Positions 852 to 51,921 of a stretch of DNA of 64,000 bases are shown piece by piece. Both the position numbers and the translations under genes were made by a program. Position 1 is the stretch's first letter. Each line of letters starts with the position of its first letter. Source of the stretch: an uncultured Methanosarcinales archaeon (GTDB lineage: Archaea > Nanobdellota > Nanobdellia > Woesearchaeales > JAGLXL01); NCBI GenBank assembly GCA_964384425.1, contig CAYLKE010000004.1, positions 6,511-70,510 on the forward strand, written 5' to 3'. Below the pieces are notes generated by a model. That model saw nothing but the letters and a program-made list of their open reading frames with translations, was not told the DNA's origin and did not search any database.

Positions 852-3800
852 ATGGAAAAAAAAAGATGGTTTATTTTTTTAGCAATTGTATGTTTTTCAC
901 TAATTTTAACTATAGGATTATATTATAGTTCACTTACTGGTAAGACAGTAGATCTCGATACAAATTCAACAGTAACAATTGCAAACTATTATGCAATTAG
1001 TTTATCAGATGATCTTTCAAATGGAATTGATTTTGGTTCAGTAACTCAACTACCTACTATAAAACAAAACGCAACTAAGAATAATTTATCTAATGGTCCT
1101 CCTGGATATTTTATCACTGTTAGTTCTGATTCAAATGTAAATGTGAGTTTATGTCTCAATGGAACACAGATGGAAAATGTCAATGGTGTTAAATTAACAT
1201 ATCCTAGTTATGTATGGAATGATTCTTTGACAGGATCTGCATCTTCTCCAAATTTTCCAGGAATTCAATTATCAAACAATCTTACAGATACAAGCACCCC
1301 TACAATAGCTCCAGGAGTTAATAATTATTTTAGATTTTGGTTGGATGTAAATTCATCAACTCCTCCGGGAACATACAATAATAGTATTTTATTCAAAGCA
1401 GTTAAGACTGGAGATACCTGTGGTTCAACTGGAACACTTGGAACTGGTGGTGCAGGTTCTTTAGGATTGGGAACTGGTTTTGGTAGTTTTTATTATTCTG
1501 TTATTGATTCAAATGGGGATCTTAATATTGGTAGTACTTCTGATTATAATTCTTATTCAATTAATACTATCACTGGTGCTTACACTGGAGAAACAAGTTT
1601 CTCATCATATGAAAGAACAACACCTAATACATATTATCAATCATTTGCTGCAGTTGATGGAGGTACACTTAAATTTTGTCAAAATCCTACAGGAACCTTT
1701 AATTGCGTTGATGTAACTGCAGGAAATATATGGGGAGTAAGTACATATTCAGATCCAAATGGTGCTTTTTCAGGCTATGTTATTGCTGCTTACGTCGATA
1801 ATGACCTTTATGTATACTTTAGCTCTGATGGTGTATCTTGGTCACCTTTGCAATTAGCAACAGGTTTATCTTTAACTCAAGGAGATGCTAATACTGATAT
1901 CGCATTAGACTCATTAACAAATACTTATATATTCTATAGAGATACAAATGATCTCTATTCTTATCAAATGGGGGGTTCTGCTGCACCTATTGCAACAGGA
2001 GTTTATCCTTCAAGAATATCAGCAACTTTTGATTCAAGTGATTATCCAAAAATAGTCTATTATAATGAAAATACAGATGAATTAAAACATACTTATTATG
2101 ATAGTGGTTTTCAAACAGAAACTATTGCTGCTAATGTAAATTATCCTAATATGGTTTATGATTCAGCAAATGATTATACTTATGTCACAGGAATCAATAC
2201 TGTAACTAATACTGTTGTGTTATATAGCAATACTGGATCTGGATGGGAATCTACAGATATAGCAACAGGCATTGACCAGACATATTCAGATGGAGTAAGT
2301 ATGAGTCAAACACCTGATGGGTTATTTAGAATAGCTTATATTAAATTAGGTTATGTTTTTGTAGGAGAATATGATCCAACAACTGAGGAGTTTACAATAA
2401 TTGGTGTAGCTGATACAGGTATGGCAATTACAGAAGATTCTTCAGGAAACGAATATTATGCATTAAATAACGGAGGAACATTGAATTTCGTTGATGATAC
2501 TAATTCAAATACATATCAGGTTGATACAAATGTAAATGGTATACCTTATGGTCTTGTTTTAGGTAATGGAGATCATTTCTTAGCATATACAAAAGGATCA
2601 TCTCCTGTTACTCTTGAAAAAGCAATAATAGATGGTTCTACATTTGCTGTAACAACTACAACAGAAGATTCAGGCAATGTAATTAATGGTTTAGACGATG
2701 ATGTGAGTAGTAATTATGTGGCATTATCTTATATTGGGGATACTGCTGTTATTTTAAGATTATATGATTATACTGATGAATCTTTTAACAAACAATGTAC
2801 TGTGGATACAACAAATATTGGTGGATCTGTATCATCTGTTGCATTAGGTCCTTTAGATAACTATGCTTATCTTTATTATAATGCAGCTAATGGAAATACT
2901 TACAATGCAAAAGTTAAAATCTCTGATTGCACTGTTACTGTAAATCAAGATACTGGTATAAGTACTCTTGCTGATATTGATTTAGAAATATTGGATGATG
3001 GCTATCTTTATGCAATGGTAGAAAAAGGTTCAAATAATGTCGAAGCTATGAAAGCAGAATTAATTAATTTAAATTTAGGATTGGAGAATGTGGTACTTGT
3101 CAATCTAAATCCTGGGGCTGGAGGTGCAATAGCTGGAATAGGTGCTAATGGGGGACAATTACCTGGAGCAAATATTATATTTTTTGGAGCTGGAGCAGCA
3201 CCTGGGGGAAATGCTCAAGTAGTACCTGTATTTATGGCTGCTGGTAATGCTAATGCAGCTATTAATGTACAAGACATTGTTGGTTTTGAAGAAGGTATTA
3301 TTGCATTTGAAGAAAAGGGACCTGTTGCTACTGGTGAAGAAATTATTGATTTTGGTAGTCTTGATGGTGAAGGTAATGCAGTAAAAAAAGACCCTAATAA
3401 TTTTCAAATAAGTTGTGGAGATGATGTTTGTACTGGTGATGAAACAGTTGAGAATTGTCCTGAAGATTGTTCAGTGGCAAATATTGAAGAAATTCCTAAT
3501 CCAGAAGGTCTAGAAAAGTCCATATCTGATGTATCTGTAAATTCTGCAGGAGAGGTACAAATTACTTATCCAACTAGTGGTGGATTAGAGGCAAGATCTA
3601 GAAATGGAGGGAATTTCGGACCACCAACAACAATTGTTGCTACAACCCCATATTATTTAGATGGTGCTACCTATGATAATAATTATTACGTTGCGGTAGT
3701 ATCTGATACTCAAGATGAGATAATACTATACAATGATGTTTTCGGTACAAATACTCCTGAAATAGTTGCAAGTGGTCTTAGTGGAGTAGAGTCAGTATCT

Positions 3801-4457
3801 ATGGAAATTGACTCAGCAACAGGTAATAAATTTGTTGTATACTCAACACAAGATAGTATTGTAATGAAATATCATGATGGGGTATCTTGGAATGAATATA
3901 TTTATTTAGAAGACATTGTTGGTGATACAGTGTTATCATCTGTTGAGACAGGTATAGATGAAACCAATAATCTGTTGTTTGTAATAGCATCAACAAATCT
4001 AGAAGGTATAATAAGGTATAGTTTTAATTTAGATACATTGACTTATGATTCATCAATTCAAAGAAGTGCACAAAATTGTCAAGAAATATCTTATAATGCT
4101 GTTGATAATGCATTTGGAATAATTGTTGGTATTACTGTTACAGGAGACCTTATTTTTATTCAAGGTGTTAGTGAGAGTACTTTAGGTTCAGGTTATACTG
4201 ATGCAATAGTAGCTTATAATGATGTAGAAGGATATAATACAATAATTGCTAGTAAAGAAGATAAATCTATCAGTAGATGGTTTAGTTTCGATGGAACAAT
4301 GACTGAACAAATAATTGGTGCAGGAACTATTTGGGATTTTGTTATGCTCGATCTTAATACTTATGTTGGTGCATTTTATAATCTTTTTACAGGAGAATTT
4401 TACATTGCAGACATACAACACTATCATTATTTTGATGCTGGTGGAGTGATAGGATAA
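852..4457 (+). CDS. Giant secreted / cell-surface protein (1201 aa): N-terminal hydrophobic anchor/signal, sequon-rich shared domain, BNR/Asp-box-like (SxDGxSW) beta-propeller-like region, Gly/Ala-rich linker, CGDDVCxGDE…CPEDC cysteine knot-like motif, beta-rich C-terminal part
   Basis: Long ORF with an N-terminal hydrophobic segment (WFIFLAIVCFSLILTIGLYY). Motifs YFSSDGVSWSP and YSNTGSGWEST resemble Asp-box repeats. Many N-x-S/T sequons. The N-terminal ~165 aa are paralogous to ORF 4670..5275. Confidence 0.75.
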   Translation: MEKKRWFIFLAIVCFSLILTIGLYYSSLTGKTVDLDTNSTVTIANYYAISLSDDLSNGIDFGSVTQLPTIKQNATKNNLSNGPPGYFITVSSDSNVNVSLCLNGTQMENVNGVKLTYPSYVWNDSLTGSASSPNFPGIQLSNNLTDTSTPTIAPGVNNYFRFWLDVNSSTPPGTYNNSILFKAVKTGDTCGSTGTLGTGGAGSLGLGTGFGSFYYSVIDSNGDLNIGSTSDYNSYSINTITGAYTGETSFSSYERTTPNTYYQSFAAVDGGTLKFCQNPTGTFNCVDVTAGNIWGVSTYSDPNGAFSGYVIAAYVDNDLYVYFSSDGVSWSPLQLATGLSLTQGDANTDIALDSLTNTYIFYRDTNDLYSYQMGGSAAPIATGVYPSRISATFDSSDYPKIVYYNENTDELKHTYYDSGFQTETIAANVNYPNMVYDSANDYTYVTGINTVTNTVVLYSNTGSGWESTDIATGIDQTYSDGVSMSQTPDGLFRIAYIKLGYVFVGEYDPTTEEFTIIGVADTGMAITEDSSGNEYYALNNGGTLNFVDDTNSNTYQVDTNVNGIPYGLVLGNGDHFLAYTKGSSPVTLEKAIIDGSTFAVTTTTEDSGNVINGLDDDVSSNYVALSYIGDTAVILRLYDYTDESFNKQCTVDTTNIGGSVSSVALGPLDNYAYLYYNAANGNTYNAKVKISDCTVTVNQDTGISTLADIDLEILDDGYLYAMVEKGSNNVEAMKAELINLNLGLENVVLVNLNPGAGGAIAGIGANGGQLPGANIIFFGAGAAPGGNAQVVPVFMAAGNANAAINVQDIVGFEEGIIAFEEKGPVATGEEIIDFGSLDGEGNAVKKDPNNFQISCGDDVCTGDETVENCPEDCSVANIEEIPNPEGLEKSISDVSVNSAGEVQITYPTSGGLEARSRNGGNFGPPTTIVATTPYYLDGATYDNNYYVAVVSDTQDEIILYNDVFGTNTPEIVASGLSGVESVSMEIDSATGNKFVVYSTQDSIVMKYHDGVSWNEYIYLEDIVGDTVLSSVETGIDETNNLLFVIASTNLEGIIRYSFNLDTLTYDSSIQRSAQNCQEISYNAVDNAFGIIVGITVTGDLIFIQGVSESTLGSGYTDAIVAYNDVEGYNTIIASKEDKSISRWFSFDGTMTEQIIGAGTIWDFVMLDLNTYVGAFYNLFTGEFYIADIQHYHYFDAGGVIG

Positions 4458-4669: not shown

Positions 4670-5275
4670 ATGGAAAAAAAAGATCTATTGATCGTATTTC
4701 TAATAGGTGTCCTAGTAGTAGCAATAGGAGCACTAGTGGCTAATATAATGCCAGCACAAAGCAATTATTTTACAGGTAGACAAACAGAATTGGATACAAA
4801 TTCAACTGTAAATATCCAAAACTATATTGCTGTAAGTTTATCAGATGATTTAGCTAGTGGAATAGATTTTGGTACAGTAAATGCATTGCCTGTAACAAAA
4901 CAAAATGCTACAGAAAATAACCTTACATCAACTGCACCAGGTTATTATATTGAATTAAGTTCTGATTCAAACTATAATGCAACAATTTGTCTTAATGGTA
5001 GTATTATGACAAACCCTAATTCAGATACAATTCCTTTAGGAAATTATTTCTGGAATGATTCATTAACAGGAGATGGTAGTAATCCAGGATTACCTGGTAC
5101 AAACTTAACAAGTGAAATGAAAAATGGAACACCCACAATGGCACCATCAGCTAAGAATTATTATAGGTTCTGGTTGAATATTTCAGGAAACCAAAATCCA
5201 GGGGTATATAACAATACAGTTTATTTTAAAGCAGCAAGATCTGGACAAGATGCATGTGGTAATATAACCAAATAA
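4670..5275 (+). CDS. Small secreted/membrane-anchored paralog (201 aa) of the N-terminal domain of the 1201-aa surface protein
   Basis: AAGGAGGG Shine-Dalgarno 7 nt upstream of the ATG and an N-terminal hydrophobic segment. Roughly half of positions are identical to residues 30-195 of ORF 852..4457 (LDTNSTV.I.NY.A.SLSDDL..GIDFG…NYYRFWL…PG.YNN…FKA). Confidence 0.75.
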   Translation: MEKKDLLIVFLIGVLVVAIGALVANIMPAQSNYFTGRQTELDTNSTVNIQNYIAVSLSDDLASGIDFGTVNALPVTKQNATENNLTSTAPGYYIELSSDSNYNATICLNGSIMTNPNSDTIPLGNYFWNDSLTGDGSNPGLPGTNLTSEMKNGTPTMAPSAKNYYRFWLNISGNQNPGVYNNTVYFKAARSGQDACGNITK

Positions 5276-5299: not shown

Positions 5300-5932
5300 A
5301 TGAAAAAAATATTATCAATCTTTATAGCGATTTTTTTAGTGACTATTGCATTCTCTTCTTTTACAGAAGCAAGAAAAGGAGTAGGTCTTAAAATACTAAG
5401 TGTTGGAGAAATAGTTAATGAAGGTGAAGAAGTATGTGTTCAGTATGGATTATATAATCCTTGGGATGAAGATGTTTATGCAAGTTTGAAAGTTTCAAAT
5501 GAACTTGCAGATGTTGTTTCAAATATCGAAGCAGAAAACAAATTAATTCCAGGATATACTTCTTCTGCAGAAGCAATTCCAACAAAATTATGTTTTGAAG
5601 TAGGAGAAATTTATGAAAAAGATTGTTTGATTGGAGACAATTATCTTTGTGAAAAAAGATGTCCTACAAATTTAGAAACATATAATGGAGAAGTAACTCT
5701 TGTACAAGTAAAAGACGATAGTATGGAAGGAATGGGTTCAGCAACAGCATTAGGAATAACTAGTGGATTAAGACTAAGGGTTATGTGTAATGGATATAAA
5801 AGAGACTGGACTCCGGTATATATTATTGTAATAGTAGCAATATTAGTTATATTGGCAATTTTATTATACATAAGATATAGTGTCCCAGAAACTCCAAAAA
5901 ATCGTAAAAAAAGCAGAAAGAAAAAAAGATAA
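5300..5932 (+). CDS. Secreted protein with N-terminal signal peptide, C-terminal transmembrane anchor and basic tail (…KNRKKSRKKKR)
   Basis: GAGG Shine-Dalgarno-like motif upstream. Signal peptide (IAIFLVTIAFSSFTEA). C-terminal hydrophobic stretch IIVIVAILVILAILLYI followed by a Lys/Arg tail. Confidence 0.7.
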   Translation: MKKILSIFIAIFLVTIAFSSFTEARKGVGLKILSVGEIVNEGEEVCVQYGLYNPWDEDVYASLKVSNELADVVSNIEAENKLIPGYTSSAEAIPTKLCFEVGEIYEKDCLIGDNYLCEKRCPTNLETYNGEVTLVQVKDDSMEGMGSATALGITSGLRLRVMCNGYKRDWTPVYIIVIVAILVILAILLYIRYSVPETPKNRKKSRKKKR

Positions 5933-5966: not shown

Positions 5967-8900
5967 ATGAAATCCAAAAGAATTTTTATTTATAGTTTAT
6001 TTATACTAATTATTATTCTCTCCTTATTTTCAATTTTATTCTTACCTAGCAAAATAACTGGTAATTTTGTAATAATAACAACTTCTTCTGCAAGAATAGA
6101 TCCAGGAATAAGAGTCATTTATGACACTTTCGATGGTTCTACAACTGATTTTCTTTATCTTAATGATACTCAATTATCGTCCATAGAAAATATGGTGGTT
6201 GAAAATAGTTCAAATGGAAAAATTATATTTAATGGGAGTATAAATCTTGCATCTGATGCAATTTTAAATATAGTTGATTTAGATAATGGGATAACTATTT
6301 CTTCTGATTCAATATACATAAATACAACATATCTTTCAAGTTTAACAGGATACACAACAATAACTTTTTACAACGAATCATTTACTAAACCTGTTGCATA
6401 TAAAAATGGACAATTATGTCCTAATTCAGAATGTTATTTTGTAAGTTATGATGGAGAAAATGCAACTTTTAATCTTTCATTTGATAGTACACCTTATACA
6501 AACATAACATTGGGTGAGGCCTATCCAAAATCTTGGGATAGCATAGAATATCCAGAAGGAGTTTATGAACCATACAACATTGGACTAGTGGGAACACACT
6601 TACATAGATTTGGAATTAAATTTGTAAATATGAATGCTTCTTCAGGAGATGTTTTGGGATGTTACATAAAACAATCTAATGGAAGTGTGTTTTTCTTAAA
6701 TGAAACTTTATTAACTTCATATAATTCACAAAATTATAGTTTAAATTATACTGTTGCAAATTCAGATAATATTTCTAAATTTACTAGGTGGGAAGGAATC
6801 AATTGTACTTTAACAAACTCCACTTCACTAAAATCTCTTGATAATGATTATTATTTTTCACGTCTAAAAAGATCTATATTTGTGCACGGAAATAATTGGA
6901 CAAAATTTAATACTGTTGATGATGATGCATATCTTGCAAGTAGATGTTTTTTAGGAATACCAAAAAGATATTTTAACAATTCCCACTATTGTGATTATGT
7001 AGGAGACGTTGCATTTGCAGTAAGCATGGCAACTGGTTTTGCAATAGAGGGTTATTGTGATGATGGGATAGATAATGACAATAATGGAAATACAGATTGT
7101 GACGATAGGTATTGTAGGGGTATCCCATATACTTGCATAGATCATAGATATGCAGGAGATCCATTTTATGGAGAATGTCAAAATGGTGTATGCTGGGAGA
7201 CGAAAAACTTTGGTGGAAGAGATATAACTTATTATTACAATAGATATGTCCAGCCTGGTGGAACGTTAAAAATAAGATTTGAAGGTGGAGATTATAATAC
7301 AACAAAACCAATTTCATATGCAATAACTGATTTACTTTCATATGATAGCTATGGTTATTATTCAGAAGGAAATGGACTTGGAACAATAAGCACAACTGAC
7401 TCAAGTGTCGTTGCTGAAGATGGAAATGGTAGAGTAGGAGATGCTGACATGGTTTTATGGGTAAACTTAAGTAGTGCATATACTGATGGAAACGAATATA
7501 ATGTTTCTATTTATTTGGTTCATGAAGGATATGATTTATTAGTTGCAGGAATACCTATAGTTATTGATTCTACTGCACCAAGCGTATGGGACGAATCTGT
7601 TACTGGAAAAAATAGAACTAGTCCTTGTTCAAATTCAATTGATGAAGATATTGATTACAATACAAGCTGTCAAGACTTAGATTGTAATGGTTCAATCGGA
7701 GGAAGTGATTGTGCAAGAGGAAATGCATACTGTGAATTTGGATCAGAGACAACATGTAATGATTGTTTTGATAATGAAGGAGATGGAAATTATGATTGTG
7801 CTGATTTAGATTGTGATTTAAAATCTGGATCTTCAACAAATTCAAGTATAAAATGTCATTATTATGGTGAAGGAAATCAAACACAATATAATTCATCATT
7901 ATATAGTTGGGTATTTGCTTGTGTTGATCTTTTTGATAATGATCAAGATGATGCTGTTGATTGTGAAGACAGAACATTCTGTTGGCAGAGGGGAGGAACA
8001 AGCCTAACTTTACCTTGTCCTGCTTATGAAAATAACACTGCTTTATGGTGTCACGATGGTATAAATAATGACTATGACAATAGGACAGACTGTGCTGATT
8101 ATGATTGTTGGAATGTTTCATATGCAAATGCAACATATTCTGCAAGATGTCCTGATAATGAATCACAAGATAAGTTTGGAAACTTTAAACCTTTACAATG
8201 TTTTGATTCATTGGATAATGATTTAGACAGCCCTATACAAAAATATTCTGGATTGGGGACAAATATTGATTGCGCAGATATAGATTGTAATGGAGTAACA
8301 CATCCCACATTAAATGTTACTTGTATGCCCTTTGAGTATAATCTTTCATTAAACATAACGCCAGAGTATTGTATGGATAATCTTGATCTTGATGGAGATA
8401 AATCTCTGGGTTGGCCAAATGGAGGATTAGATTGTAATGATCCTGACTGCAATAAACAATTTGGAAGTTGTGGACCATGTCCTTCATTTGAATATATGTC
8501 TTATGGATCTTGTGCAGATAATATTGATCAAGATACAGACAGACCAACATCCTACATAGATTGTGAAGATACAGATTGTTTAGGCAAAATGGGTTCAAAA
8601 GATTCATCACAGGTTTGTGCTGCTTCTGAAAATACTATTACTTTATGTTCTGATGAATTTGATAATGATGCAAATGGAAATACTGATTGTGCAGACAGCA
8701 ATTGTAATGGAATAGGAATATGTGAATACTCAACTGAAACAACTTGTAATGATCAACTAGATAATGATGGTGATGGTGATACTGATTGTCTAGATAGTGA
8801 TTGTTATGGGATTGGAAGTTGTGCATCGATGTCATGGACAGCAGGAAGTTGTTTGGTTGTGCCTTACAATACTAGCTCTTTATCAATAGGTTCAACAAGT

Positions 8901-11900
8901 GTAACATTCTATCATACAAGCAGACATCATATTAATAATAAATATTATATGAATTTTGCAAGTACTGAAAGTTATTCATCTGTAACAATAACTGTTGGAG
9001 ATGCAACTGATTCAAATGATTATTTTCCTTACAATGCTTCAACATGCACATTAAGTGGAGACACAAATAAAATTAACTTAGTGACTTCTCAAGATGAAGT
9101 TTTTCAGTTACAAGACAGAGGGAGTTTTACAGGAGGATTTAATGTAACTATTGAATGTGATGGACTAAGTAGTGCACAGACTAACACATACCCTATTATA
9201 ATTTCAAATAGCTTACAATCTAGTGCAACAGAAAGTGCTGATGAATCATACACAGCAGTTGTATATGAAAACACTGCTCCATCTGTTTCATCTGTTGAGG
9301 TAGATTTATGGGATGGGAGTGTTGCAGAAGTGAATTATGGAGATCCTATATCCTTAAGAGCAATACCTTTAAATGATCCATCAAATATTTGTAAATGTAG
9401 TTTTAACATTGGAGGAAATGTTTACAATAGTTCAGATGGAAATTGCATATATGAACATGATGTTTATGATGACACTTCTTATACATTATCTGCAGCTGCA
9501 AGAGATGGAGCATATAATTTAGGTACTTATGGGGGCACAAGAATTGTTCCTGTAAATGTACTTCCTGTACAAGATTTTTTTGCAATAAGCAGAAATTATC
9601 CTTTCTTTAATTCAACTGCTGGAGAAAGTATAGTTTTTACCTCACTATTCAAGTCTGCAACATCAGGAAGTATTAGTTCTTGTAATGCATGGATAGAGGA
9701 TGAAAGTGGAAGTATTGTTTTAAGTAAAAGTGTAACTCCTGTTGGAAGTAATAGTGCAGCATGCAATAATAATTTTAACACATCTTCATTAGCAGACGGA
9801 ATTTACTATGTCCGTATGAATGCAACTGATGAGGATGGTGACACTGTAACTTCAGATAAAAAATTATTTTATGTCTGTTCAAATTACACTTCCAGTGGAA
9901 GTAATTGGAATTGTTCAATCGCAGACTTTGATCAAGATGGTCAACCAGATCAATGTGATTACGCATTACAATACGATGTTGGAGTTGATTTAGCATTTAA
10001 TTTTGAATTCATTAGTAATTATTCAATTAAAATTACATCTATTTACGAAGCTGTAACTGACTTTTTATTATTAGAAAAAACAACAAACGCATCTTTCCTT
10101 GATTTTAAACTTCCAACAGGTGAGTATGATGTAAATATTGATGTTTTCGACGGAAACTTAATAGTACACTTAAATGATTTAAACTTAACTATTGAAAGTA
10201 ATTATACTTTTGCGTTTGATATGTATGATGGTGTAAATGGTATAAGGGCTTATGCTTTTTCACCTGGAGTTAATTTTAGTAGTGCTTATGTTAAATTCGA
10301 TTATTCAGAACTTGATTATGTCAGAGAAGCTAATTTAGTTTTATATAAGTGTGATGGTCATAATTATAACTTTACAACCAGAAGATGTATGAATGATTCT
10401 TGGTATTTACTTAATTCAACAATAAATTCCTCAACACAACATATATTAGCAGATGTTGATAATTTTTCAGGATTTTATATTTATGAAAATCCTCCAACTC
10501 CAAAATGGACAAGATTATTGCATCCAGAAGGAGTTTATGAACCTTATAACGCCGGACTTCCTGGAAAACATCTACACACATTTGCACTTAAATTTGAAAA
10601 CTTAAATACCTCTCTTGGAACTGAATTAGAATGTCTCATAGAACAATCAGATGGAACTTTATTTAATGTAACTGAACCTGTAACTCAGAACACTCTTTAT
10701 TCAAACTTTTCATTAAATTATACTATTAAAAATACAGACAATGTTTCCAAATTAACTCCTTGGGAAATTGTAAATTGTACTTTGTATCGGTCAGATGGAG
10801 TTATTGAGTTTTCAGATGACACTGAATTTAGTAATGCAACATACAATCTTACTCATTTAAACAGAAGTATTTTTGTTCATGGAAATGAATGGACGAGATT
10901 TGACACATCAAATGATGATGCTTACAGGGCAGCAAGATGTTTCTTAGGTTTCCCAAAAAGATATTTTAATAATTCTTATTATTGCGATTATGTGGGGGAC
11001 GTTGCATTTGCAGTTAGTATGAGTTTAGGAATGAATTTAGAAGGAAATTGTCAAGATGGAATAGATAATGATGGAAATGGAGATGTAGATTGCGATGACA
11101 GATATTGTCAAGGATTACCTTACTCTTGTAAGAATCATGTTTATGCAGGAGATCCATTTGAAGGAACATGTAGTAATGGAATATGTACAGAGTCAAGAAC
11201 ATTTGGTGTTCCTGCAAAAACATTAACATATAGTTTTACAAAATATGTAAAACCTAATGGAACATTCAAGGTCAGATTTAATGGTGGGAGTTATAGCACA
11301 TCGTCACCTGTTCTTTATAGTGTAACTGATTTAAATGGTGTTGATTCATATGGCCATTACAATAGAACAGGATATGATTCACTTGAATCTTTTAGTTCAA
11401 CTGCAACAAGTGTTGCTACTGAATCTTCTTCAGGACATAGTGGGAATGTAGATTTTGTTATGTGGATTAATTTAAGTGATTATAGTGAAGGTAATTACAA
11501 TATTTCATATTACTTTGTACATAATGGACAAGATCTTTATGTTCAAGGAATTCCAATTGTTGTGACAGATAATGCTGTTTCAAATTGGGATGAATCCGAA
11601 ACTGGAACATATACAACATTGCCTTGTGCAAATAGTGCAGATGAAGATTTAGATTACATTGAAGGATGTTTAGATTTAGATTGTGATGGAGAAATTGGTG
11701 GGACAAATTGTGTTGGTGGAAATGCATATTGTGAATATGGAACAGAGTTAACATGTTATGATTGTTTTGATAATGATGATAATGGAGCTTATGATTGTGG
11801 AGAAAGTGTATGTGATTTAAAAAGAGGAAGTTATAATGATGCAAGTATTCTTTGTCATTACAATGGAGAAGGACATAGTAGTTATGATAGTTCAATATAT

Positions 11901-14750
11901 AGTTGGGCAAATGCCTGTAATGATGGATTTAATAATGATCAAGAAGATGGAACAGATTGTTATGATACAACATTTTGTCGGGGAAGAGGAGGAAGTAGTA
12001 CAACATTACCTTGTCCTGCAAATGAGAGTAATGATCCAAGTTGGTGTTTTGATAGCATAGATAATGATTTTGATGGAATGATGGATTGTAATGATCTTGA
12101 TTGTAGTGGTGTTATTTATGGAGATAATAAATGTCCTACAAAAGAAATGGAAACAACTTCAAATGAAAATAGTTCATTACAATGTTTTGATAGCATAGAT
12201 AATGATTATGATGGTAGTTCAGATTGTTCTGATACAGCAGATTGTAGAGGAGTTGTCAATTTATTAAATTGGCAAGTATGTCATTCAAGTGAATTTAATT
12301 CAAGTTATAGTTTTTCTTCAATGTTTGGAGGATATAATACTATTGAATATACTGCACCTACAAATATTGTTGCATGTTTAAATAATATAAATGATGATGG
12401 TGATGGAGATGTAAATTGTTATGATGATGATTGTAATGGAAAAAGTGGAGAATGTGGACCTTGTCCAGATAGAGAAGATGTTTCATTTACTTCATGTTCA
12501 AATAATTTGAATGATGATTACAGTGGGGGAAGTGATTGTGTAGATAGTGATTGTTATGGGTTATTTGGAGAATTTACATCATCTAGTGGATCTGTAAAAT
12601 GCCAAGCAAGTGAAAATAATAATACTTTATGTTCTGATGAATATGACAATGATGCAGATGGAAATGTTGATTGTGAAGATAATGAATGTGATGGGTACAG
12701 TTATTGCGAACATTCAACTGAAACAACTTGTAATGATGAATATGACAATGATGCAGACGGAAAAACGGATTGTGCAGATAGTGATTGTTTTGGAGTTAGT
12801 GGGTGTAGTGCAATGTCTTGGACAGCAACAAGTTGTACTGCAATACCTGCAAGTGGATCTTTATCATTAGGATCTGTTTCTGCAAGTTATCTTACAAAAC
12901 ACCATATTAATTCAAATTATACAATATCTTTTACTGGATCAGGTGATTATGATTCAGTCACTGTAACTTTAGGGGACGCAACAAATAGTTCCTTATATTT
13001 TCCTTATAATGCAACACAATGTGTTTTAAGTGGAGACACAGATAAAGTAAAATGGGTATCTTCTCAAAATGTTGTAGGTCAGTTACAAGATAATAGTTCT
13101 TTTACAGGAGGATTTACTGCAACACTAACTTGTCCTGGACTTTCAACAGTACAAACTAATTCATATTCAATAACTACATCTAATCAAGTCGATGGTTCAA
13201 CAGAAAGCTATTCAGATACATTATCAACAACAACTTATGAAAATACACTTCCTAGTGTTAATGCTTTAGAACAATCACATATAAATTTAGAATATAATGA
13301 AGGATTTTATTTTAGAGGAATACCTTCAAATGATCCAAGTGGAATATGCACTTGTCTTTACAATATTTCTGGAACACAATCACTAGTTGATGGGAATTGT
13401 ATTAAAGCAATGAATTTACAGACTATAGATACCTCATATAATCTAGGTGTTGCTGCAAAAGATGGTGCAAGCAATATTGGAAGTTACACTTCATTTGGAA
13501 GTTATAATGTTAATGTGATGATAATTGCAAAATCAGTAAGTATAGGAGATTATTTTTATAATTCAAGTTCATTAAATTCAATATCTGTATCAGCTGATTT
13601 CCAGACTGCAGATAATGGGCAAGTAGTGGGATGTAATGCATCTATAATAAATTCAACAGGTCAACAACAAAGTATTATTGTTATGAATATTAGTGGTACA
13701 AATGATGTAACTTGTAGTGGGAACATAGATATAAGTTCACTTTCAGATGGAGATTATATTGTTGAATTTTTTGCAGTAGATGAAGATGGAGACAATGCAT
13801 CTATTGAAACTGTATTTAGCATATGTTCTGATAATACATCATCACCTATGTGTGCATATATGGATTTAGATAAAGATGGAATACCTGACAATAAAGATTG
13901 TAAATATCTTCTTCCATTTATGGATTATCCTTATCAACTTAAATTTAATTATGTTTATTCATCATCTGAAAATCCTTCACCTAAGTATTATATCTATAAA
14001 ACTGGATATAATTATTCTCTATTTAATAAAAATTTAGCAGGAGCATCTTCAACAGAATTTGATATTGTTGAAGATATTTATGATTTTGTAGTGTTAAATT
14101 ATGATGATAAGTTTTCAGTTAGATTTAATAGTGTTAATATAACTCAAAATGAGACATACACAATAAAATTAGACAATCTTGACAATACAAATACTTATGG
14201 ATATAAAACATATGCAATTGATATAGATCCAGAAAAAAATTCAGATGCAATTGTAACTGTGAGTTATGATGGATTAAATTATACTAATGAAACAAATATA
14301 GATCTTTATGTTTGTTCTGATTGGAATATGGGAACAAGAAGTTGTAAAACTAATTGGGTTGTTTCAAACTCTACACAATATTTTGCTGAAAATCTTTTTA
14401 GAACTACTTATGGTGGATCATTTCAAGCAGGATTTTCAATTGCAGATTCACAACCTATAAAAACAACTCCTCCTCCTGTAGAAGAAGAGGAAGAGATTCC
14501 ACGTAGAAGTGGATCAGGACCATTACCTTTCCAATTACAAGATTTGATATATCAAATTTCAACTAGTGAAATAAAATTATCTGATGATTTTGGAAAAAAA
14601 GAAACAAAACAAGAACTAGTATCATTTAGTATAAATAAAAAACAATTCGATTATAAAGAAGTTATAAAAGAATCAACTAAGTTTTATTTTAGTAAATTGA
14701 TTATTGCATCATTTAATTGGATATTGTCATTGTTTTTATTTTTATTCTAA
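5967..14750 (+). CDS. Giant cell-surface protein (2927 aa) with N-terminal signal/anchor, two large internal repeat units, many Cys-flanked Asp-rich DxDxDG (putative Ca-binding, TSP3/dockerin/EF-hand-loop-like) repeats, and a C-terminal hydrophobic anchor
   Basis: Uninterrupted 8.8-kb ORF with an N-terminal hydrophobic segment. Repeated C.D..DND.[DN]G..DC.D.DC motifs (e.g. CNDQLDNDGDGDTDCLDSDC). C-terminal hydrophobic tail (LIIASFNWILSLFLFLF). Abundant N-x-S/T sequons. Confidence 0.8.
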   Translation: MKSKRIFIYSLFILIIILSLFSILFLPSKITGNFVIITTSSARIDPGIRVIYDTFDGSTTDFLYLNDTQLSSIENMVVENSSNGKIIFNGSINLASDAILNIVDLDNGITISSDSIYINTTYLSSLTGYTTITFYNESFTKPVAYKNGQLCPNSECYFVSYDGENATFNLSFDSTPYTNITLGEAYPKSWDSIEYPEGVYEPYNIGLVGTHLHRFGIKFVNMNASSGDVLGCYIKQSNGSVFFLNETLLTSYNSQNYSLNYTVANSDNISKFTRWEGINCTLTNSTSLKSLDNDYYFSRLKRSIFVHGNNWTKFNTVDDDAYLASRCFLGIPKRYFNNSHYCDYVGDVAFAVSMATGFAIEGYCDDGIDNDNNGNTDCDDRYCRGIPYTCIDHRYAGDPFYGECQNGVCWETKNFGGRDITYYYNRYVQPGGTLKIRFEGGDYNTTKPISYAITDLLSYDSYGYYSEGNGLGTISTTDSSVVAEDGNGRVGDADMVLWVNLSSAYTDGNEYNVSIYLVHEGYDLLVAGIPIVIDSTAPSVWDESVTGKNRTSPCSNSIDEDIDYNTSCQDLDCNGSIGGSDCARGNAYCEFGSETTCNDCFDNEGDGNYDCADLDCDLKSGSSTNSSIKCHYYGEGNQTQYNSSLYSWVFACVDLFDNDQDDAVDCEDRTFCWQRGGTSLTLPCPAYENNTALWCHDGINNDYDNRTDCADYDCWNVSYANATYSARCPDNESQDKFGNFKPLQCFDSLDNDLDSPIQKYSGLGTNIDCADIDCNGVTHPTLNVTCMPFEYNLSLNITPEYCMDNLDLDGDKSLGWPNGGLDCNDPDCNKQFGSCGPCPSFEYMSYGSCADNIDQDTDRPTSYIDCEDTDCLGKMGSKDSSQVCAASENTITLCSDEFDNDANGNTDCADSNCNGIGICEYSTETTCNDQLDNDGDGDTDCLDSDCYGIGSCASMSWTAGSCLVVPYNTSSLSIGSTSVTFYHTSRHHINNKYYMNFASTESYSSVTITVGDATDSNDYFPYNASTCTLSGDTNKINLVTSQDEVFQLQDRGSFTGGFNVTIECDGLSSAQTNTYPIIISNSLQSSATESADESYTAVVYENTAPSVSSVEVDLWDGSVAEVNYGDPISLRAIPLNDPSNICKCSFNIGGNVYNSSDGNCIYEHDVYDDTSYTLSAAARDGAYNLGTYGGTRIVPVNVLPVQDFFAISRNYPFFNSTAGESIVFTSLFKSATSGSISSCNAWIEDESGSIVLSKSVTPVGSNSAACNNNFNTSSLADGIYYVRMNATDEDGDTVTSDKKLFYVCSNYTSSGSNWNCSIADFDQDGQPDQCDYALQYDVGVDLAFNFEFISNYSIKITSIYEAVTDFLLLEKTTNASFLDFKLPTGEYDVNIDVFDGNLIVHLNDLNLTIESNYTFAFDMYDGVNGIRAYAFSPGVNFSSAYVKFDYSELDYVREANLVLYKCDGHNYNFTTRRCMNDSWYLLNSTINSSTQHILADVDNFSGFYIYENPPTPKWTRLLHPEGVYEPYNAGLPGKHLHTFALKFENLNTSLGTELECLIEQSDGTLFNVTEPVTQNTLYSNFSLNYTIKNTDNVSKLTPWEIVNCTLYRSDGVIEFSDDTEFSNATYNLTHLNRSIFVHGNEWTRFDTSNDDAYRAARCFLGFPKRYFNNSYYCDYVGDVAFAVSMSLGMNLEGNCQDGIDNDGNGDVDCDDRYCQGLPYSCKNHVYAGDPFEGTCSNGICTESRTFGVPAKTLTYSFTKYVKPNGTFKVRFNGGSYSTSSPVLYSVTDLNGVDSYGHYNRTGYDSLESFSSTATSVATESSSGHSGNVDFVMWINLSDYSEGNYNISYYFVHNGQDLYVQGIPIVVTDNAVSNWDESETGTYTTLPCANSADEDLDYIEGCLDLDCDGEIGGTNCVGGNAYCEYGTELTCYDCFDNDDNGAYDCGESVCDLKRGSYNDASILCHYNGEGHSSYDSSIYSWANACNDGFNNDQEDGTDCYDTTFCRGRGGSSTTLPCPANESNDPSWCFDSIDNDFDGMMDCNDLDCSGVIYGDNKCPTKEMETTSNENSSLQCFDSIDNDYDGSSDCSDTADCRGVVNLLNWQVCHSSEFNSSYSFSSMFGGYNTIEYTAPTNIVACLNNINDDGDGDVNCYDDDCNGKSGECGPCPDREDVSFTSCSNNLNDDYSGGSDCVDSDCYGLFGEFTSSSGSVKCQASENNNTLCSDEYDNDADGNVDCEDNECDGYSYCEHSTETTCNDEYDNDADGKTDCADSDCFGVSGCSAMSWTATSCTAIPASGSLSLGSVSASYLTKHHINSNYTISFTGSGDYDSVTVTLGDATNSSLYFPYNATQCVLSGDTDKVKWVSSQNVVGQLQDNSSFTGGFTATLTCPGLSTVQTNSYSITTSNQVDGSTESYSDTLSTTTYENTLPSVNALEQSHINLEYNEGFYFRGIPSNDPSGICTCLYNISGTQSLVDGNCIKAMNLQTIDTSYNLGVAAKDGASNIGSYTSFGSYNVNVMIIAKSVSIGDYFYNSSSLNSISVSADFQTADNGQVVGCNASIINSTGQQQSIIVMNISGTNDVTCSGNIDISSLSDGDYIVEFFAVDEDGDNASIETVFSICSDNTSSPMCAYMDLDKDGIPDNKDCKYLLPFMDYPYQLKFNYVYSSSENPSPKYYIYKTGYNYSLFNKNLAGASSTEFDIVEDIYDFVVLNYDDKFSVRFNSVNITQNETYTIKLDNLDNTNTYGYKTYAIDIDPEKNSDAIVTVSYDGLNYTNETNIDLYVCSDWNMGTRSCKTNWVVSNSTQYFAENLFRTTYGGSFQAGFSIADSQPIKTTPPPVEEEEEIPRRSGSGPLPFQLQDLIYQISTSEIKLSDDFGKKETKQELVSFSINKKQFDYKEVIKESTKFYFSKLIIASFNWILSLFLFLF
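6540..13930 (+). repeat. Intragenic tandem duplication: two diverged ~3.9-kb copies (approx. 6540-10500 and 10510-13930) inside the 2927-aa gene
   Basis: Protein segments starting EYPEGVYEPYNIGLVGTHLH… and HPEGVYEPYNAGLPGKHLH… stay collinear over >1100 aa. Shared blocks include RSIFVHGN.WT.F.T.DDAY.A.RCFLG.PKRYFNNS.YCDYVGDVAFAVSM and …CSDE.DNDA(N/D)GN.DC…. Confidence 0.7.
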
Positions 14751-21443: not shown

Positions 21444-21824
21444 TTAGATAATTAAAAAATGTTTATCTCTTGTAATCATTATTGCATTGTTATCTCTAGC
21501 TTGAATTGCATACAAACAATCTCCTAAAGGAAGATTTCTTTTTATTGAAAGATTTTTAGCTTCTTTAAATGTCTTTTCACTAATTTCTATTTTAATTATT
21601 TTGCCAGAAATAAATAATAAATTTAACATATAATTAATGTCTTGTTCAGAATATGTTGTTTTTAATTCTTTTATGGTTGTATTAGAAAATAATATTTTAT
21701 TTTTTGATTTAATTATCTTATTGATTAGTGCAGTTGCATATTGCCCTATTGGATTTCCTACTAAACTAATTCTGTTTTCAAAAAAGTCCATCCAAATACA
21801 TGTATCTAATAAATATTTTCTCAT
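21444..21824 (-). CDS. PIN-domain protein (VapC-like ribonuclease toxin)
   Basis: N-terminal LLDTCIWMDFF… with acidic residues spaced as in PIN domains, and a C-terminal …ITRDKHF. Confidence 0.55.
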   Translation of the reverse strand: MRKYLLDTCIWMDFFENRISLVGNPIGQYATALINKIIKSKNKILFSNTTIKELKTTYSEQDINYMLNLLFISGKIIKIEISEKTFKEAKNLSIKRNLPLGDCLYAIQARDNNAIMITRDKHFLII

Positions 21825-29886: not shown

Positions 29887-31773
29887 ATGATGGAAAAAAG
29901 AGGTCAGGTGACAATATTTATTATAGTAGGTATAATATTATTGGTTTCTATTGGATTAGTTTTTGTTTTCAGAAGTGAGCTTATTTCTGAAACTAAAATA
30001 TCTTATCCTGCAGAAGTTGAACCTGTTGCATTTGCAGTAAGAGATTGTTTACAACAAAAAGCAGATGAAGGTTTAGCATTACTTGGAAGTCAGGCAGGAT
30101 ATATTTATATTCCTCCTCAAATATTAGATGATAGTAATCTTAATGCTGATATTGGTATAAAAATACCTTACTGGAAAAAAGGAGATATAGTAAACATACC
30201 TTCTCTTGATAAAATGAGTTTTGATCTTAACAAATATATTGAAGTTAATCTAAAAGATTGTATGGGTAATTTTTCTGATTTTAGAGATTATGAAGTTATT
30301 GAAACTTCTCCTTTATCTGTAAATACCTCAATAGGTGATGAGGCAGTTGTATTTTCAATGAATTATCCTCTCAAAATAAGATTATTTTCTGATGGATCTG
30401 AGTATGATATTTCTCAATTTGAATATATTTCAAATATTAAATTAAAAAAACTTTGGTTATTATCTAAAGAAATCATGGAAAAAGAAATTGCAACAAAAAA
30501 ATTAGGAGATACAACATTTGATCTTATGGCAATGGATACAAAAATACCTGTTAATGGATATGATTTTAGTTGTGATAAAAAAGAATGGAAAATATCTGAT
30601 GTAGAAGACAGATTAAGAAAATTATTAGCATTTAACTTACCTTTATTAAGAATAAAGAAAACCCCAATAGAACAATTTCCTGATGAATATGAATATATGA
30701 ATACTCACTATATATGGGATGCAACAGATTTTGAATATGATGATGTGTCTGTTAGTTTTGGAATGATGGAAACTGAACCTTTAATGATGCATGTTTCGCC
30801 TTCAAAAGGAGAATACATAAAAAGTGGTGTTATAGAATCTCCTGATAAAAATAAATTAAGTCAATTAGGTATAGATACATCTGCTTTGCTTTCATTGGTT
30901 TGTTTTCAATTATGGAAATTTAATTATGATGTTTCCTATACTGCTTTTGCAAATGTTTTAGATGAATCAACAGGTTTTAAATTTACATTTCTATTTGATG
31001 TAAATGTAGAAGATAATGCTCCAGTTGATACTAGCAATGTACAAGTTGATTATGAAACTTATGTTGAAAAAACAAGTAATGAAGATTTTTGTGATGATAA
31101 AGTTAATGACTTAACAATATATACAAATGAATTTACTAATAATGATAATTATGGTGGAAGTCTTAATAATGTTGAATTGACATTTGATTGCATGCAATAC
31201 TCTTGTGATTTAGGTGACTCAATACCTATTGAAGGAGCATCTGGACTTAAAGTAAAACTACCTAGATGTACTTATGGTTATGTAAGAGCTAATAAAGAAG
31301 GATTTTTAGATGATGAAGAAGTTATTGAAATAGGACAAGAAAAAGTAGATATTAATCTTGTTCCTATACATAAATTAAATAATTTTGTAGTAAAAAAATA
31401 TATTTGGAATGAAAATATAAATGATTGGTTTATAGACGATATAACTGGATCAGATTATGCACTTGTATCTTTAAGAGGTAGTTTAAATAAAGGTGGAGAA
31501 AGTGTTGATTTAGGATCAAGTACAACTTATCCTTTTGAAGAAAGTGTACAAAATTATCTTGAAATATTTTCAGGATCTGATGTAAATTATATTGTTGATG
31601 TTAATTTATTAAGGTCTGGTAAAGTTATAGGAACATATAGTGGAAATTGGAATGTTTCTTGGCAAGATATTTTATTAGGAGAAGAGGTTATTATTCCAGT
31701 TATATTTAATTCAGATAGTCAAGAAATTTTAAATCTTAATAAATCACTAATACCTGAGATAGAGATAAGATGA
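29887..31773 (+). CDS. Large (628 aa) archaeal type IV pilin-like protein with class III signal peptide
   Basis: N-terminus MMEKRGQVTIFIIVGIILLVSIGLVFVF has a KRG|Q prepilin-peptidase-type cleavage motif followed by a ~22-aa hydrophobic helix. 4-nt ATGA overlap with the next gene. Confidence 0.6.
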   Translation: MMEKRGQVTIFIIVGIILLVSIGLVFVFRSELISETKISYPAEVEPVAFAVRDCLQQKADEGLALLGSQAGYIYIPPQILDDSNLNADIGIKIPYWKKGDIVNIPSLDKMSFDLNKYIEVNLKDCMGNFSDFRDYEVIETSPLSVNTSIGDEAVVFSMNYPLKIRLFSDGSEYDISQFEYISNIKLKKLWLLSKEIMEKEIATKKLGDTTFDLMAMDTKIPVNGYDFSCDKKEWKISDVEDRLRKLLAFNLPLLRIKKTPIEQFPDEYEYMNTHYIWDATDFEYDDVSVSFGMMETEPLMMHVSPSKGEYIKSGVIESPDKNKLSQLGIDTSALLSLVCFQLWKFNYDVSYTAFANVLDESTGFKFTFLFDVNVEDNAPVDTSNVQVDYETYVEKTSNEDFCDDKVNDLTIYTNEFTNNDNYGGSLNNVELTFDCMQYSCDLGDSIPIEGASGLKVKLPRCTYGYVRANKEGFLDDEEVIEIGQEKVDINLVPIHKLNNFVVKKYIWNENINDWFIDDITGSDYALVSLRGSLNKGGESVDLGSSTTYPFEESVQNYLEIFSGSDVNYIVDVNLLRSGKVIGTYSGNWNVSWQDILLGEEVIIPVIFNSDSQEILNLNKSLIPEIEIR

Positions 31774-37812: not shown

Positions 37813-38376
37813 ATGAGTAATATAACTCAAAAATGGGTAAATGTATTTAAAGCTTATTCATCAAATTATAATGGAAAGCTTTCTGCTAGTCAGATTTCTA
37901 AAAATACAAAAATACCTCAACAAACAGTTTCCAGAATAATGAATCAAATGGTTAAAGATAATGTTGTTAGATTTATTAAAGAGGGAAGAAATAAATTATT
38001 CTATCTTGATAAAAATGCAGTTACCACAAAACCTCTTGTTAAAATAATAGAATGCCAAAAATCTGTTGATTTTTTATTGAAGAATAAAAATATTTCTTTG
38101 ATTGTTAAAGATTTACTTAAGAAATTTAAATGTTTTATTATATTCGGAAGTTATGCTTCTGGTAAAAACAAAAAAAGTTCTGATTTGGATATTTTGATAT
38201 TTTCTAAGAAGAAATCAATAAGAGATATTAAATCTAAATATTCTATTGATATAAATGAACATTTTATTACTTTTGCTGAATTTAAGAGAATGAAAAATAA
38301 TACTTTAATTAAGGAAGTTATAATGAATCACGTGTTATTTGGGGATTTTGACAATGTAATTGAGGTGTTTTTATGA
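37813..38376 (+). CDS. Minimal nucleotidyltransferase (MNT) with N-terminal winged-HTH
   Basis: NTase motif IIFGSYASGKNKKSSDLDILIF (hG[GS]x9-13DhD). N-terminal HTH-like segment (LSASQISKNTKIPQQTVSRIMNQMV). Confidence 0.65.
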   Translation: MSNITQKWVNVFKAYSSNYNGKLSASQISKNTKIPQQTVSRIMNQMVKDNVVRFIKEGRNKLFYLDKNAVTTKPLVKIIECQKSVDFLLKNKNISLIVKDLLKKFKCFIIFGSYASGKNKKSSDLDILIFSKKKSIRDIKSKYSIDINEHFITFAEFKRMKNNTLIKEVIMNHVLFGDFDNVIEVFL

Positions 38377-38810
38377 AGATTAAATGGTGTTTTGAACAAA
38401 AAGGTGTTGAACTTATTGATAAAAAAGAACATCTTTCTGAATCTTATATGAAAGAAGCAGACGAAACACTTGAAAATATGTATTTAACTAAAGGAAAATG
38501 GAAAGTAATTACTGCTTATTATTCTTGCTATAATGCAATTTATTCTTTGTTGATGAAAGTAGGTATAAAATGTGAAATACCTGATTGCACTATTGAATTG
38601 ATGGAATTATTTGGATTTAGTTTGGATGATATTGAGTTTATGAAAGATCTGAAAGACGATAGAATTAAAAACCAGTACTACTTAAAGAATATTGAACTAA
38701 AAAATGAATCAAAAGTTAAAGAATTTGTTTTAAAATGTAAGGAAAAACTTTTGATGAATGATTCAGATGTTGAGAATATAAGAAAAAAGATAAAAGAGAT
38801 GATTGAATGA
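38373..38810 (+). CDS. HEPN-domain protein, cognate partner of the upstream MNT
   Basis: 4-nt overlap with the MNT gene. Helical 145-aa protein with an R-x2-N-x2-Y motif (DDRIKNQYYLKN) in place of the canonical Rx4-6H. Confidence 0.5.
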   Translation: MKIKWCFEQKGVELIDKKEHLSESYMKEADETLENMYLTKGKWKVITAYYSCYNAIYSLLMKVGIKCEIPDCTIELMELFGFSLDDIEFMKDLKDDRIKNQYYLKNIELKNESKVKEFVLKCKEKLLMNDSDVENIRKKIKEMIE

Positions 38811-51493: not shown

Positions 51494-51498
51494 TCAAT

Positions 51499-51921
51499 AT
51501 GGATGAAATATCATGGAAAGAATGTATAGAAAATGGAATTATTTTTGAAACTATACCTGATTTAGAAAGATCATTACAATTATTGTCTATGGCTGAGACA
51601 AGATTTCTTTTTTGGAATAAAAAAGTTAATAAAAAATTTATTACATTGAAAGTTGAAGGATACTACGAAATCATTAAAGAACTTATTTTTGCTTTAATAT
51701 ATAAAAATGGTTTTAATTGTAAAAATCATATTTGTTTAATTGCATATTTACAAGAAAAACATTCTGAATTAATTTATGAAATTGATAAGATCAATGAATT
51801 GAGAAAAATAAGAAATGATATATCTTATCGTGGATTTTATGTTGATAAAGATTATTTAGATAGAAATGAATTAGAGTTTAAGAATATTATAAATATCTTA
51901 ATAAATAAAGTTAAACAATAA
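51499..51921 (+). CDS. HEPN-domain protein, partner of MNT (second pair)
   Basis: Starts 6 nt after the MNT stop. Helical, with an R-x-R-N-x3-Y motif (LRKIRNDISYRG). Confidence 0.5.
   Translation: MDEISWKECIENGIIFETIPDLERSLQLLSMAETRFLFWNKKVNKKFITLKVEGYYEIIKELIFALIYKNGFNCKNHICLIAYLQEKHSELIYEIDKINELRKIRNDISYRGFYVDKDYLDRNELEFKNIINILINKVKQ

Follow-up and report, generated by a model that had tools for sequence, protein, structure and literature searches.

What kind of protein is encoded by the long, cysteine-studded open reading frame (ORF) at positions 5967-14750 of the forward strand in the archaeal stretch analyzed here (64,000 nucleotides of contig CAYLKE010000004.1, hereafter the window), and what might its acidic repeats do outside the cell? 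An open frame of 8.8 kb in DNA of 28% G+C makes a chance origin impossible, and a protein identical to the predicted product is present in a public collection (P0001). The 2,927-residue product contains 126 Cys residues and shows an acidic bias (411 Asp+Glu against 141 Lys+Arg). Its 89 N-X-S/T sequons, compared with 50 ± 6.4 in composition-preserving shuffles (z = 6.1), bear out a preliminary description of this locus that had called the protein dense in glycosylation sequons. On the Kyte-Doolittle scale only two hydrophobic segments were detected, one per terminus (residues 2-33 and the last 20 residues), and homologues end in a transmembrane segment with a basic tail. These terminal segments support the prediction of a giant extracellular or surface protein. 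We assign a probability of roughly 0.6 to the reading in which the product would be Sec-exported, anchored at its C-terminus, N-glycosylated and stiffened by Ca2+, acting as a cell-surface spacer or adhesin; the repeats that would bind this Ca2+ are homologous to a domain of known structure, the C-rich domain of teneurins.

Scanning with a unit profile and a regular expression located exactly ten Cys/Asp units in each half of the protein, in line with the earlier estimate of about ten per half. The units start near residues 361, 554, 593, 651, 691, 743, 801, 847, 890, and 923 in half A and near residues 1692, 1887, 1926, 1983, 2024, 2071, 2133, 2174, 2218, and 2251 in half B, and the four cysteines C1-C4 are present in all 20. 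The NCBIfam model NF033662 (acid_disulf_rpt) matched 14 stretches with 169.5 bits against a cut-off of 41 (E = 7.6e-51). This model, named "acidic double-disulfide repeat-containing protein", describes a unit of ~32 residues that is rich in Asp and has four conserved Cys, as observed here, and since the match lies far above the cut-off, the repeat constitutes an already curated family. The model covers the repeat alone and is silent on the 1,300-residue cassette in which the units are embedded, on its immunoglobulin (Ig)-like domains and on function; a literature search found no paper on it. The earlier statement that this is not a standard Pfam repeat thus holds insofar as Pfam has no model for it, while the accompanying idea of an unnamed repeat type gives way to the NCBIfam entry.

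When the whole protein and seven of its sub-regions were scanned with Pfam, nothing rose above any cut-off. The thrombospondin type 3 models TSP_3 (PF02412) and TSP3_bac (PF18884) gave no match at E ≤ 1 for the whole protein and at E ≤ 10 for the repeat segments, which speaks against the possibility, raised in the preliminary description, that the repeats simply belong to that family. Among dockerin and EF-hand profiles, the sole trace on the repeat segments was a sub-threshold one to EF-hand_STIM1 (E = 0.13; 12.8 bits against a cut-off of 32.2), and an AlphaFold2 (AF2) model of an array contains almost no helix flanking the loops, so that the helix-loop-helix context of an EF-hand is missing. 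The family PF11617 (Cu-binding_MopE, a "putative metal-binding motif" family), considered as a lead, had no match on the repeat segments either, as apart from the EF-hand_STIM1 trace no Pfam family was reported there at E ≤ 10. The pattern DxDxDGxxD itself was matched exactly at seven sites, including stand-alone Cys-flanked loops at residues 1320 and 2633.

The comparison with solved structures pointed consistently to teneurins. A phmmer search of PDB with residues 551-956 matched a single chain, 7plp_A, the C-rich domain of human teneurin-4 (E = 5e-4), and a profile built from 17 units produced eight matches up to E = 10, all of them teneurins (Ten-2, Drosophila Ten-m and, at E = 1.8e-5, Ten-4), and chains of thrombospondin or COMP were absent from this profile search at E ≤ 10. 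The same chain was the top Foldseek match in PDB for the AF2 model of residues 551-956 (14-sequence alignment; mean predicted local distance difference test, pLDDT, of 76), with a root-mean-square deviation of 1.0 Å over 32 columns, 53% identity, a template modeling (TM) score, TM(target), of 0.70 and a probability of 0.99; the query is a predicted model, and the E-value of 0.064 is explained by the shortness of the domain.

In human Ten4, the C-rich domain (residues 834-871, 38 residues) holds three fully coordinated Ca2+ (Meijer et al. 2022, PMC9058538; PDB 7PLP). The ligands are E835, D840, D843, N844, D845, D847, D851, D854, and D856, and the disulfides are C838-C857, C852-C863, and C858-C869; Ca sites I and II are coordinated as in thrombospondin type 3 repeats, one site is similar to low-density lipoprotein (LDL)-receptor class A, and the teneurin ectodomain is stabilized by calcium (PMC9058538). 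The teneurin motif E-x2-C-x-D-x2-D-N-D-x-D-x3-D-C-x-D-x-D-C recurs in the units with identical spacing of its three Cys and nine ligands. The exact C-x13-C-x4-C spacing of 7PLP is shared by 14 of the 20 units, which carry Asp, Glu or Asn at seven to nine of the nine ligand positions; all nine are filled in the units at residues 597, 927, 2222, and 2255. This homology in Cys spacing and ligand positions lends good support to the earlier proposal of Ca-binding loops locked by disulfides, and the units are very probably loops of this kind. With four Cys per unit, homology to 7PLP predicts the bonds C1-C3 and C2-C4, that is, a "double disulfide".

Teneurins carry this domain in one copy, with six Cys, three disulfides (1-3, 2-5, 4-6), a CC doublet and a conotoxin-like C-terminal extension, whereas the window protein arrays 20 copies of four Cys each, without the CC doublet or the third disulfide and outside any EGF, TTR or YD-shell context. 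In teneurins, the domain is part of a cell-adhesion ectodomain, which it stabilizes with Ca2+. Thrombospondin type 3 repeats (TSP-1, the COMP "wire") have in common with the window repeats the DxDxDGxxD logic of Ca binding, the stapling by disulfides and a tandem design that wraps many Ca2+, whereas the Cys pattern differs and no profile matches. That prokaryotic metal-binding motifs resemble the Cys-rich motif of teneurins is already in the literature, and the link is therefore not wholly novel: the motif ExxCx(D/N)xxDx(D/E)xDxxxDCxxx(D/E)C is given by Jackson et al. (2019; PMC6425310), where, with reference to Tucker et al. (2012), similar bacterial and algal motifs are called "putative metal-binding motifs".

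The arrangement of the units is conserved as well. Across 14 cassettes of only 45-68% identity, the array has 37 invariant Cys columns, and in 7 of 10 units the best match between halves A and B lies at the equal ordinal position. Because units hold their position both between A and B and across the family, the array represents a fixed architecture rather than a fluid tandem repeat.

The cassette and its family

The units are embedded in a larger element that occurs twice in the protein. BLASTP of the two halves aligned residues 187-1485 with residues 1512-2803 at 46% identity over 1,341 columns (E = 0), so that the internal doubling claimed in the preliminary description, with collinear paralogous halves, is confirmed with a doubled unit of ~1,300 residues (3.9 kb). 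The motifs PEGVYEPYN, RSIFVHGN.WT.F, and CFLG.PKRYFNNS.YCDYVGDVAFAVSM quoted there were recovered in both halves. Compared with the bounds then given (~190-1530 and ~1515-2650), copy B runs ~150 residues further, to residue ~2803. The features of the gene are as follows (window coordinates, strand, feature with residues, basis or remark).

5967..14750, +, whole gene, surface protein; preceded on the same strand by a series of ORFs for secreted-looking proteins (852-4457, 4670-5275, 5300-5932), of which it is the last
5967..6065, +, N-terminal signal peptide or transmembrane segment, residues 1-33, MKSKRIFIYSLFILIIILSLFSILFLPSKITG; Kyte-Doolittle maximum 2.91
6066..6524, +, N-terminal beta-rich domain, residues 34-186; outside the cassettes and the duplicated region, without family match
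6525..10466, +, cassette A, residues 187-1500; BLASTP between halves, and the cassette recurs once or twice in 13 other proteins
6525..7040, +, cassette A head, Ig-like beta-sandwich and helical hairpin, residues 187-358; AF2 blocks with pLDDT 80-93; motifs PEGVYEPYN, IFVHGN.W, and PKRYFNN..CDYVGDVAF
7041..7151, +, acidic double-disulfide repeat unit 1, residues 359-395; unit profile, NF033662
7152..7616, +, second beta-sandwich of cassette A, residues 396-550; AF2 strands, model residues 217-347, pLDDT 80-92
7617..8834, +, nine-repeat array of cassette A with linkers, residues 551-956; 39 Cys, 19.5% Asp+Glu; NF033662, invariant Cys, AF2, Foldseek
8835..9959, +, beta-rich Ig-like region of cassette A, residues 957-1331; weak sub-threshold Pfam traces
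9924-9950, +, stand-alone Cys-flanked DFDQDGQPD loop of cassette A, residues 1320-1328; motif scan, ends the Ig-like region
9960..10466, +, tail domain of cassette A, residues 1332-1500, ending in NFSGFYIYE; without significant family match
10500..14375, +, cassette B, residues 1512-2803, deep paralog of cassette A; BLASTP, identity matrix, tree
11034..11144, +, acidic double-disulfide repeat unit 11, the first of cassette B, residues 1690-1726; unit profile
11616..12818, +, nine-repeat array of cassette B, residues 1884-2284; 39 Cys, 21.7% Asp+Glu; unit profile, NF033662, Cys columns
13863..13889, +, stand-alone Cys-flanked DLDKDGIPD loop of cassette B, residues 2633-2641; motif scan
14376..14687, +, membrane-proximal charged linker, residues 2804-2907, PPPVEEEEE...; Lys/Glu-rich, with 0 Cys and 0 sequons
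14688..14750, +, C-terminal hydrophobic anchor, residues 2908-2927, FSKLIIASFNWILSLFLFLF, with stop codon; hydrophobicity, homologue ends

Outside the repeats, the cassette appears to be built mostly from beta-sandwiches. The AF2 model of residues 187-552 (18-sequence alignment; mean pLDDT 73) comprises an Ig-like sandwich, a helical hairpin, the first repeat, which is poorly modeled, and a second, well-predicted sandwich, and its fold matches in PDB include integrin legs, pilins, Als and other adhesin domains, and transglutaminase sandwiches. The head (residues 187-358) has no Pfam match. Behind the array, sub-threshold Pfam traces to the TcfC E-set, FlgD_ig, and Big_13 suggest Ig-like domains at most, and nothing was found when residues 952-1511 were compared with PDB sequences. 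Each cassette contains one stand-alone Cys-flanked DxDxDGxxD loop. In many homologues (P0003, P0007, P0008, P0009, P0011, P0012, and P0014), the corresponding DFDQDG loop is followed by a longer segment, CDMCPG..NTG.D.D.DGIDD.CD. From its sequence, this segment seems to be a true repeat of thrombospondin-type-3-like kind; in the window protein the first loop alone is retained, without this segment.

A homology search yielded 14 proteins in which the cassette is a discrete unit of ~1,150-1,310 residues. It is present once in P0004, P0005, P0006, P0008, P0009, P0010, P0011, and P0014 and twice in the window protein, P0002, P0003, P0007, and P0012, whereas the N-terminal regions preceding it differ widely and include FG-GAP, beta-helix, Kelch, and LamG domains among homologues. 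A genome search, run with an alignment of seven closer sequences, raised the range to one to four cassettes per protein in 10 archaeal genomes. One locus (L007:5663-21083, contig CAZDZV010000008.1) encodes up to four successive cassettes with 26-38% identity to the window cassette. Together with the duplications in relatives, this locus indicates that cassette multiplication is a recurrent habit of the family. The metagenome-assembled genomes (MAGs) and other assemblies that bear the cassette are labelled Woesearchaeota, Nanoarchaeota (a single-amplified genome), Altiarchaeota (four) and "Methanosarcinales" (four third-party annotation assemblies), and the related loci range from 35% to 63% G+C, those of the Altiarchaeota MAGs from 53% to 63%. 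In a library of 1.84 billion proteins, a profile of the head region retrieved 115 representatives at E < 1e-30, many of them giants of 1.5-7.3 thousand residues, and returned in addition many proteins made of repeats only, in which the unit number reaches about 40. The window protein is one member of a sizeable, uncharacterized family of modular archaeal surface giants.

How far this family reaches back is a more tentative matter. It is possible, although we consider it somewhat doubtful, that the cassette is an undescribed ancient archaeal building block shared by DPANN-like and Altiarchaeota lineages with G+C contents from 28% to 63%, and that the C-rich domain of animal teneurins would be an elaborated lone copy of its repeat. 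If so, the archaeal arrays would offer a natural system for the mechanics of the teneurin C-rich domain.

Possible roles at the cell surface

In the reading that we prefer, the ectodomain consists of two copies of an ancient ~1,300-residue cassette, each running from an Ig-like sandwich through one repeat, a second sandwich, nine repeats, Ig-like domains and a Cys-flanked DxDxDG loop to a tail domain. Each repeat would form a knot of ~30 residues in which Asp, Asn and Glu side chains wrap two to three Ca2+ and two disulfides, presumably C1-C3 and C2-C4, lock the loop. At two to three ions per unit, as in the teneurin domain, ~20 units would bind some 40-60 Ca2+ per protein. The nine-unit arrays could then act as stiff, protease-resistant rods that keep the beta-sandwich domains off the membrane, and doubling of the cassette would provide a longer stalk with twice as many candidate binding modules. 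The sequon excess suggests that this ectodomain may also be N-glycosylated.

Two groups of giant surface proteins offer a comparison. RTX adhesins are giant, Ca2+-dependent bacterial proteins with Ig-like extender domains that are rigidified by Ca2+. In general terms, the likeness lies in an anchor, a long chain of beta-sandwiches and many structural Ca2+ that would stiffen a stalk bearing binding modules, whereas in the window protein Ca2+ would sit in Cys-knotted mini-domains rather than between Ig domains, and the protein is archaeal, a predicted Sec substrate, and without an RTX or type I secretion signal. The SPEARE proteins of Nanohaloarchaeum antarcticus are reportedly predicted surface proteins of several thousand residues, from a DPANN archaeon with a small genome, for which a part in cell contact has been proposed. 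The window protein resembles them in all these respects, a likeness drawn from their description, but no protease or nuclease domain was detected in it with Pfam or NCBIfam, and its cassette family extends outside DPANN. By analogy with such modular giants and with teneurins, the protein most likely serves in adhesion to other cells or surfaces, and adhesion to a host cell, as the preliminary description had it, is plausible.

Several observations weigh against this reading. The PDB fold matches of the non-repeat parts are generic (TM about 0.2), and no binding partner and no ligand-binding or enzymatic domain was identified. Loop insertions occur in 6 of the 20 units and acidic ligands are lost in some, which renders the Ca2+ stoichiometry uncertain. 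The AF2 models were made without ions, and the disulfide pairing was taken from 7PLP rather than from model geometry; disulfide formation is itself uncertain in the probably anoxic habitat of the organism. No conserved neighbors of cassette genes were found when the window ORFs were compared with ten related loci. Altiarchaeota are, to our knowledge, not described as episymbionts, so that the presence of the family in these archaea does not imply a role specific to an episymbiont and its host, nor is the cassette a signature of episymbiosis.

The strongest alternative, which we regard as unlikely yet worth weighing, is a structural component of the envelope, similar to an S-layer or canopy, that would build or brace the cell wall with Ca2+ stabilizing its lattice and would not be a host adhesin. 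The membrane anchor, the sequon excess, the acidic composition and the fact that the domains are all beta-sandwiches would suit such a component as well, as would the occurrence of the cassette in Altiarchaeota. Two features are harder to accommodate: a cassette number varying from one to four, combined with variable N-terminal fusions, is the habit of modular adhesins and not of a lattice-forming S-layer, and 2,927 residues lie far beyond the usual S-layer range of 40-210 kDa given in the Altiarchaeum hamus paper. That paper, which describes Altiarchaeum hamus and S-layer proteins, reports a hamus subunit of 97 kDa and mentions neither cysteine nor calcium. Identity with the altiarchaeal hamus was considered and rejected on these two grounds.

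We consider it improbable that the protein is mainly a sink for divalent metals or a scaffold for biomineralization, in which ~20 acidic units would chiefly sequester or nucleate Ca2+ or other metals at the cell surface instead of stiffening a stalk. Acidic residues make up 19-22% of the arrays, the homologous teneurin domain holds three Ca2+ in ~35 residues, and similar bacterial and algal motifs are described as putatively metal-binding in the passage of Jackson et al. (2019; PMC6425310) that cites Tucker et al. (2012). In teneurins, however, the Ca2+ is structural, fully coordinated and stabilizes the fold; the units of the window protein keep their positions (7 of 10 between A and B, and across 14 cassettes) as expected of a fixed architecture and not of a bulk chelator; and the flanking Ig-like domains would be left without explanation. 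Delivery of a toxin, with repeats preceding a C-terminal toxin or YD shell as in teneurin-like or polymorphic-toxin proteins, was rejected as hardly credible despite the homology of the repeat to the teneurin domain, because Pfam and NCBIfam scans detected no YD/RHS, NHL, TTR, EGF or toxin domain and the C-terminus is a charged linker with a hydrophobic anchor.

Should the preferred reading of a Ca2+-stiffened spacer or adhesin be correct, the solved three-Ca2+ homologue would provide a structural handle on large unannotated surface proteins of small-genome archaea (~100 relatives in the library), and surface architecture as well as any cell-cell contact in these archaea would be predicted to depend on Ca2+. 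The prokaryotic ancestry already known for teneurin domains would moreover be extended, within archaea, to their C-rich domain. The repeat itself is already catalogued, however, and genomes of this kind are expected to encode giant modular surface proteins.

Age of the internal doubling

The preliminary description had regarded the duplication as recent and had raised the possibility of a collapsed or expanded repeat in the assembly. At the DNA level, the halves are alignable only in part, with 66-70% identity; self-comparison found no long near-identical repeat between them, and the longest near-identical matches (28-32 nt) lie between adjacent repeat units. Copies of such divergence cannot be accounted for by assembly collapse or expansion. 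At the protein level, cassettes were compared on 1,102 trimmed columns, on which the following identities to cassette A were obtained.

P0002a, 62%
P0002b, 61%
P0004, 60%
P0005, 56%
P0006, 56%
Cassette B of the same protein, 51%

A neighbor-joining tree placed cassette A (P0001a) in a clade with P0002a, P0002b, P0004, and P0005 that leaves out cassette B (P0001b) with a bootstrap of 1.0. The outgroups P0008 and P0009 are 48% and 46% identical to copy A and 46% and 47% identical to copy B, and these near-equal distances indicate that copy B is a deep paralog rather than a recent copy that has evolved fast. The claim of a recent duplication thus fails on both the A-B identity and the nesting of A among modules of other proteins.

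That an aberrant doubled gene arose by tandem duplication in recent times or as an artefact of assembly is accordingly a very remote prospect, even with the two halves adjacent and collinear. Apart from the DNA identity, the protein identity of 46-51% and the grouping of copy A with modules of P0002, P0004, and P0005 rather than with copy B, a further argument comes from a second genome (P0002, L001), in which two cassettes are arranged in the same way and joined by the same junction, FSGF..YE-PP.P.W-..PEGVYEPYN. Judged from these sequence comparisons, the duplication in the window gene is neither recent nor an artefact of assembly. In other members of the family, the closest relatives are found within one protein (P0002a/b at 66% and P0003a/b at 61%), and as mutual nearest neighbors these pairs suggest that the lineages concerned underwent duplications of their own or gene conversion.

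Neighboring genes in the window

The window is archaeal. It has 27.6% G+C and encodes a ZPR1-type zinc finger protein, TYW2/Trm5, FEN1 (XPG), ThrRS, an SFM1-like methyltransferase and a LAGLIDADG intein; the G+C content, the archaeal housekeeping genes and the nearest relatives of the cassette suggest a DPANN-like source. The giant gene is the last of four ORFs on the same strand, all of which look secreted. NCBIfam gave no matches on ten neighboring large ORFs, so that there are no further acidic double-disulfide repeat proteins among the ten scanned.

Upstream of the giant gene, the ORFs 498-806, 852-4457, and 4670-5275 (+) share a paralogous secreted domain of ~160 residues with the motif DLDTNSTV.I.NY.A.SLSDDL..GIDFG.V..LP..KQNAT.NNL…PG.YNN...FKA, located behind a signal or transmembrane segment in the upstream proteins of 201 and 1,201 residues. 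No Pfam or NCBIfam match was found for this domain. These ORFs may represent a small family of surface or fiber subunits that forms, with the giant gene, an island of surface proteins. ORF 5300-5932 (+), 34 nt upstream of the giant gene, encodes 210 residues with an N-terminal signal, a C-terminal transmembrane segment and the poly-basic tail KNRKKSRKKKR; no family match was obtained for it, nor is it conserved beside cassette genes in the ten related loci.

A second cluster of large proteins lies at 29887-37070 (+), where the stop of a 628-residue ORF overlaps the start of a 1,766-residue ORF. In the latter, an Ig domain similar to that of Glucodextranase B (E = 3.7e-14) and weak traces of CBM/Big_13 were detected; it lacks acidic double-disulfide repeats and is probably another surface protein. 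For ORF 45234-49487 (+), with 1,417 residues, weak Pfam traces of coiled-coil type alone were detected (CCDC93_CC, OmpH), and it may encode an SMC/Rad50-like or structural coiled-coil protein.

Among the smaller genes, two pairs of overlapping or adjacent ORFs (37813-38810 and 50972-51921, +) each begin with a helix-turn-helix and nucleotidyltransferase protein (NTP_transf_2/Polbeta), followed by an ORF of 145 or 140 residues without a Pfam match, a layout that resembles toxin-antitoxin pairs of the MNT-HEPN type. Also observed were an ORF with a PIN domain (21444-21824, -) and one of Fic/DOC type (40894-41835, -). In ORF 61163-63997 (-), which runs off the end of the window, an intein was recognized (Intein_splicing, E = 5e-28) that includes a LAGLIDADG homing-endonuclease domain. 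Finally, the cumulative GC skew climbs to about 5.05 at ~54 kb and then drops, and the coding strand switches from + to - at ~53.3 kb; this turn at ~53000-54000 could mark a replication-related boundary or merely reflect transcription-strand bias.

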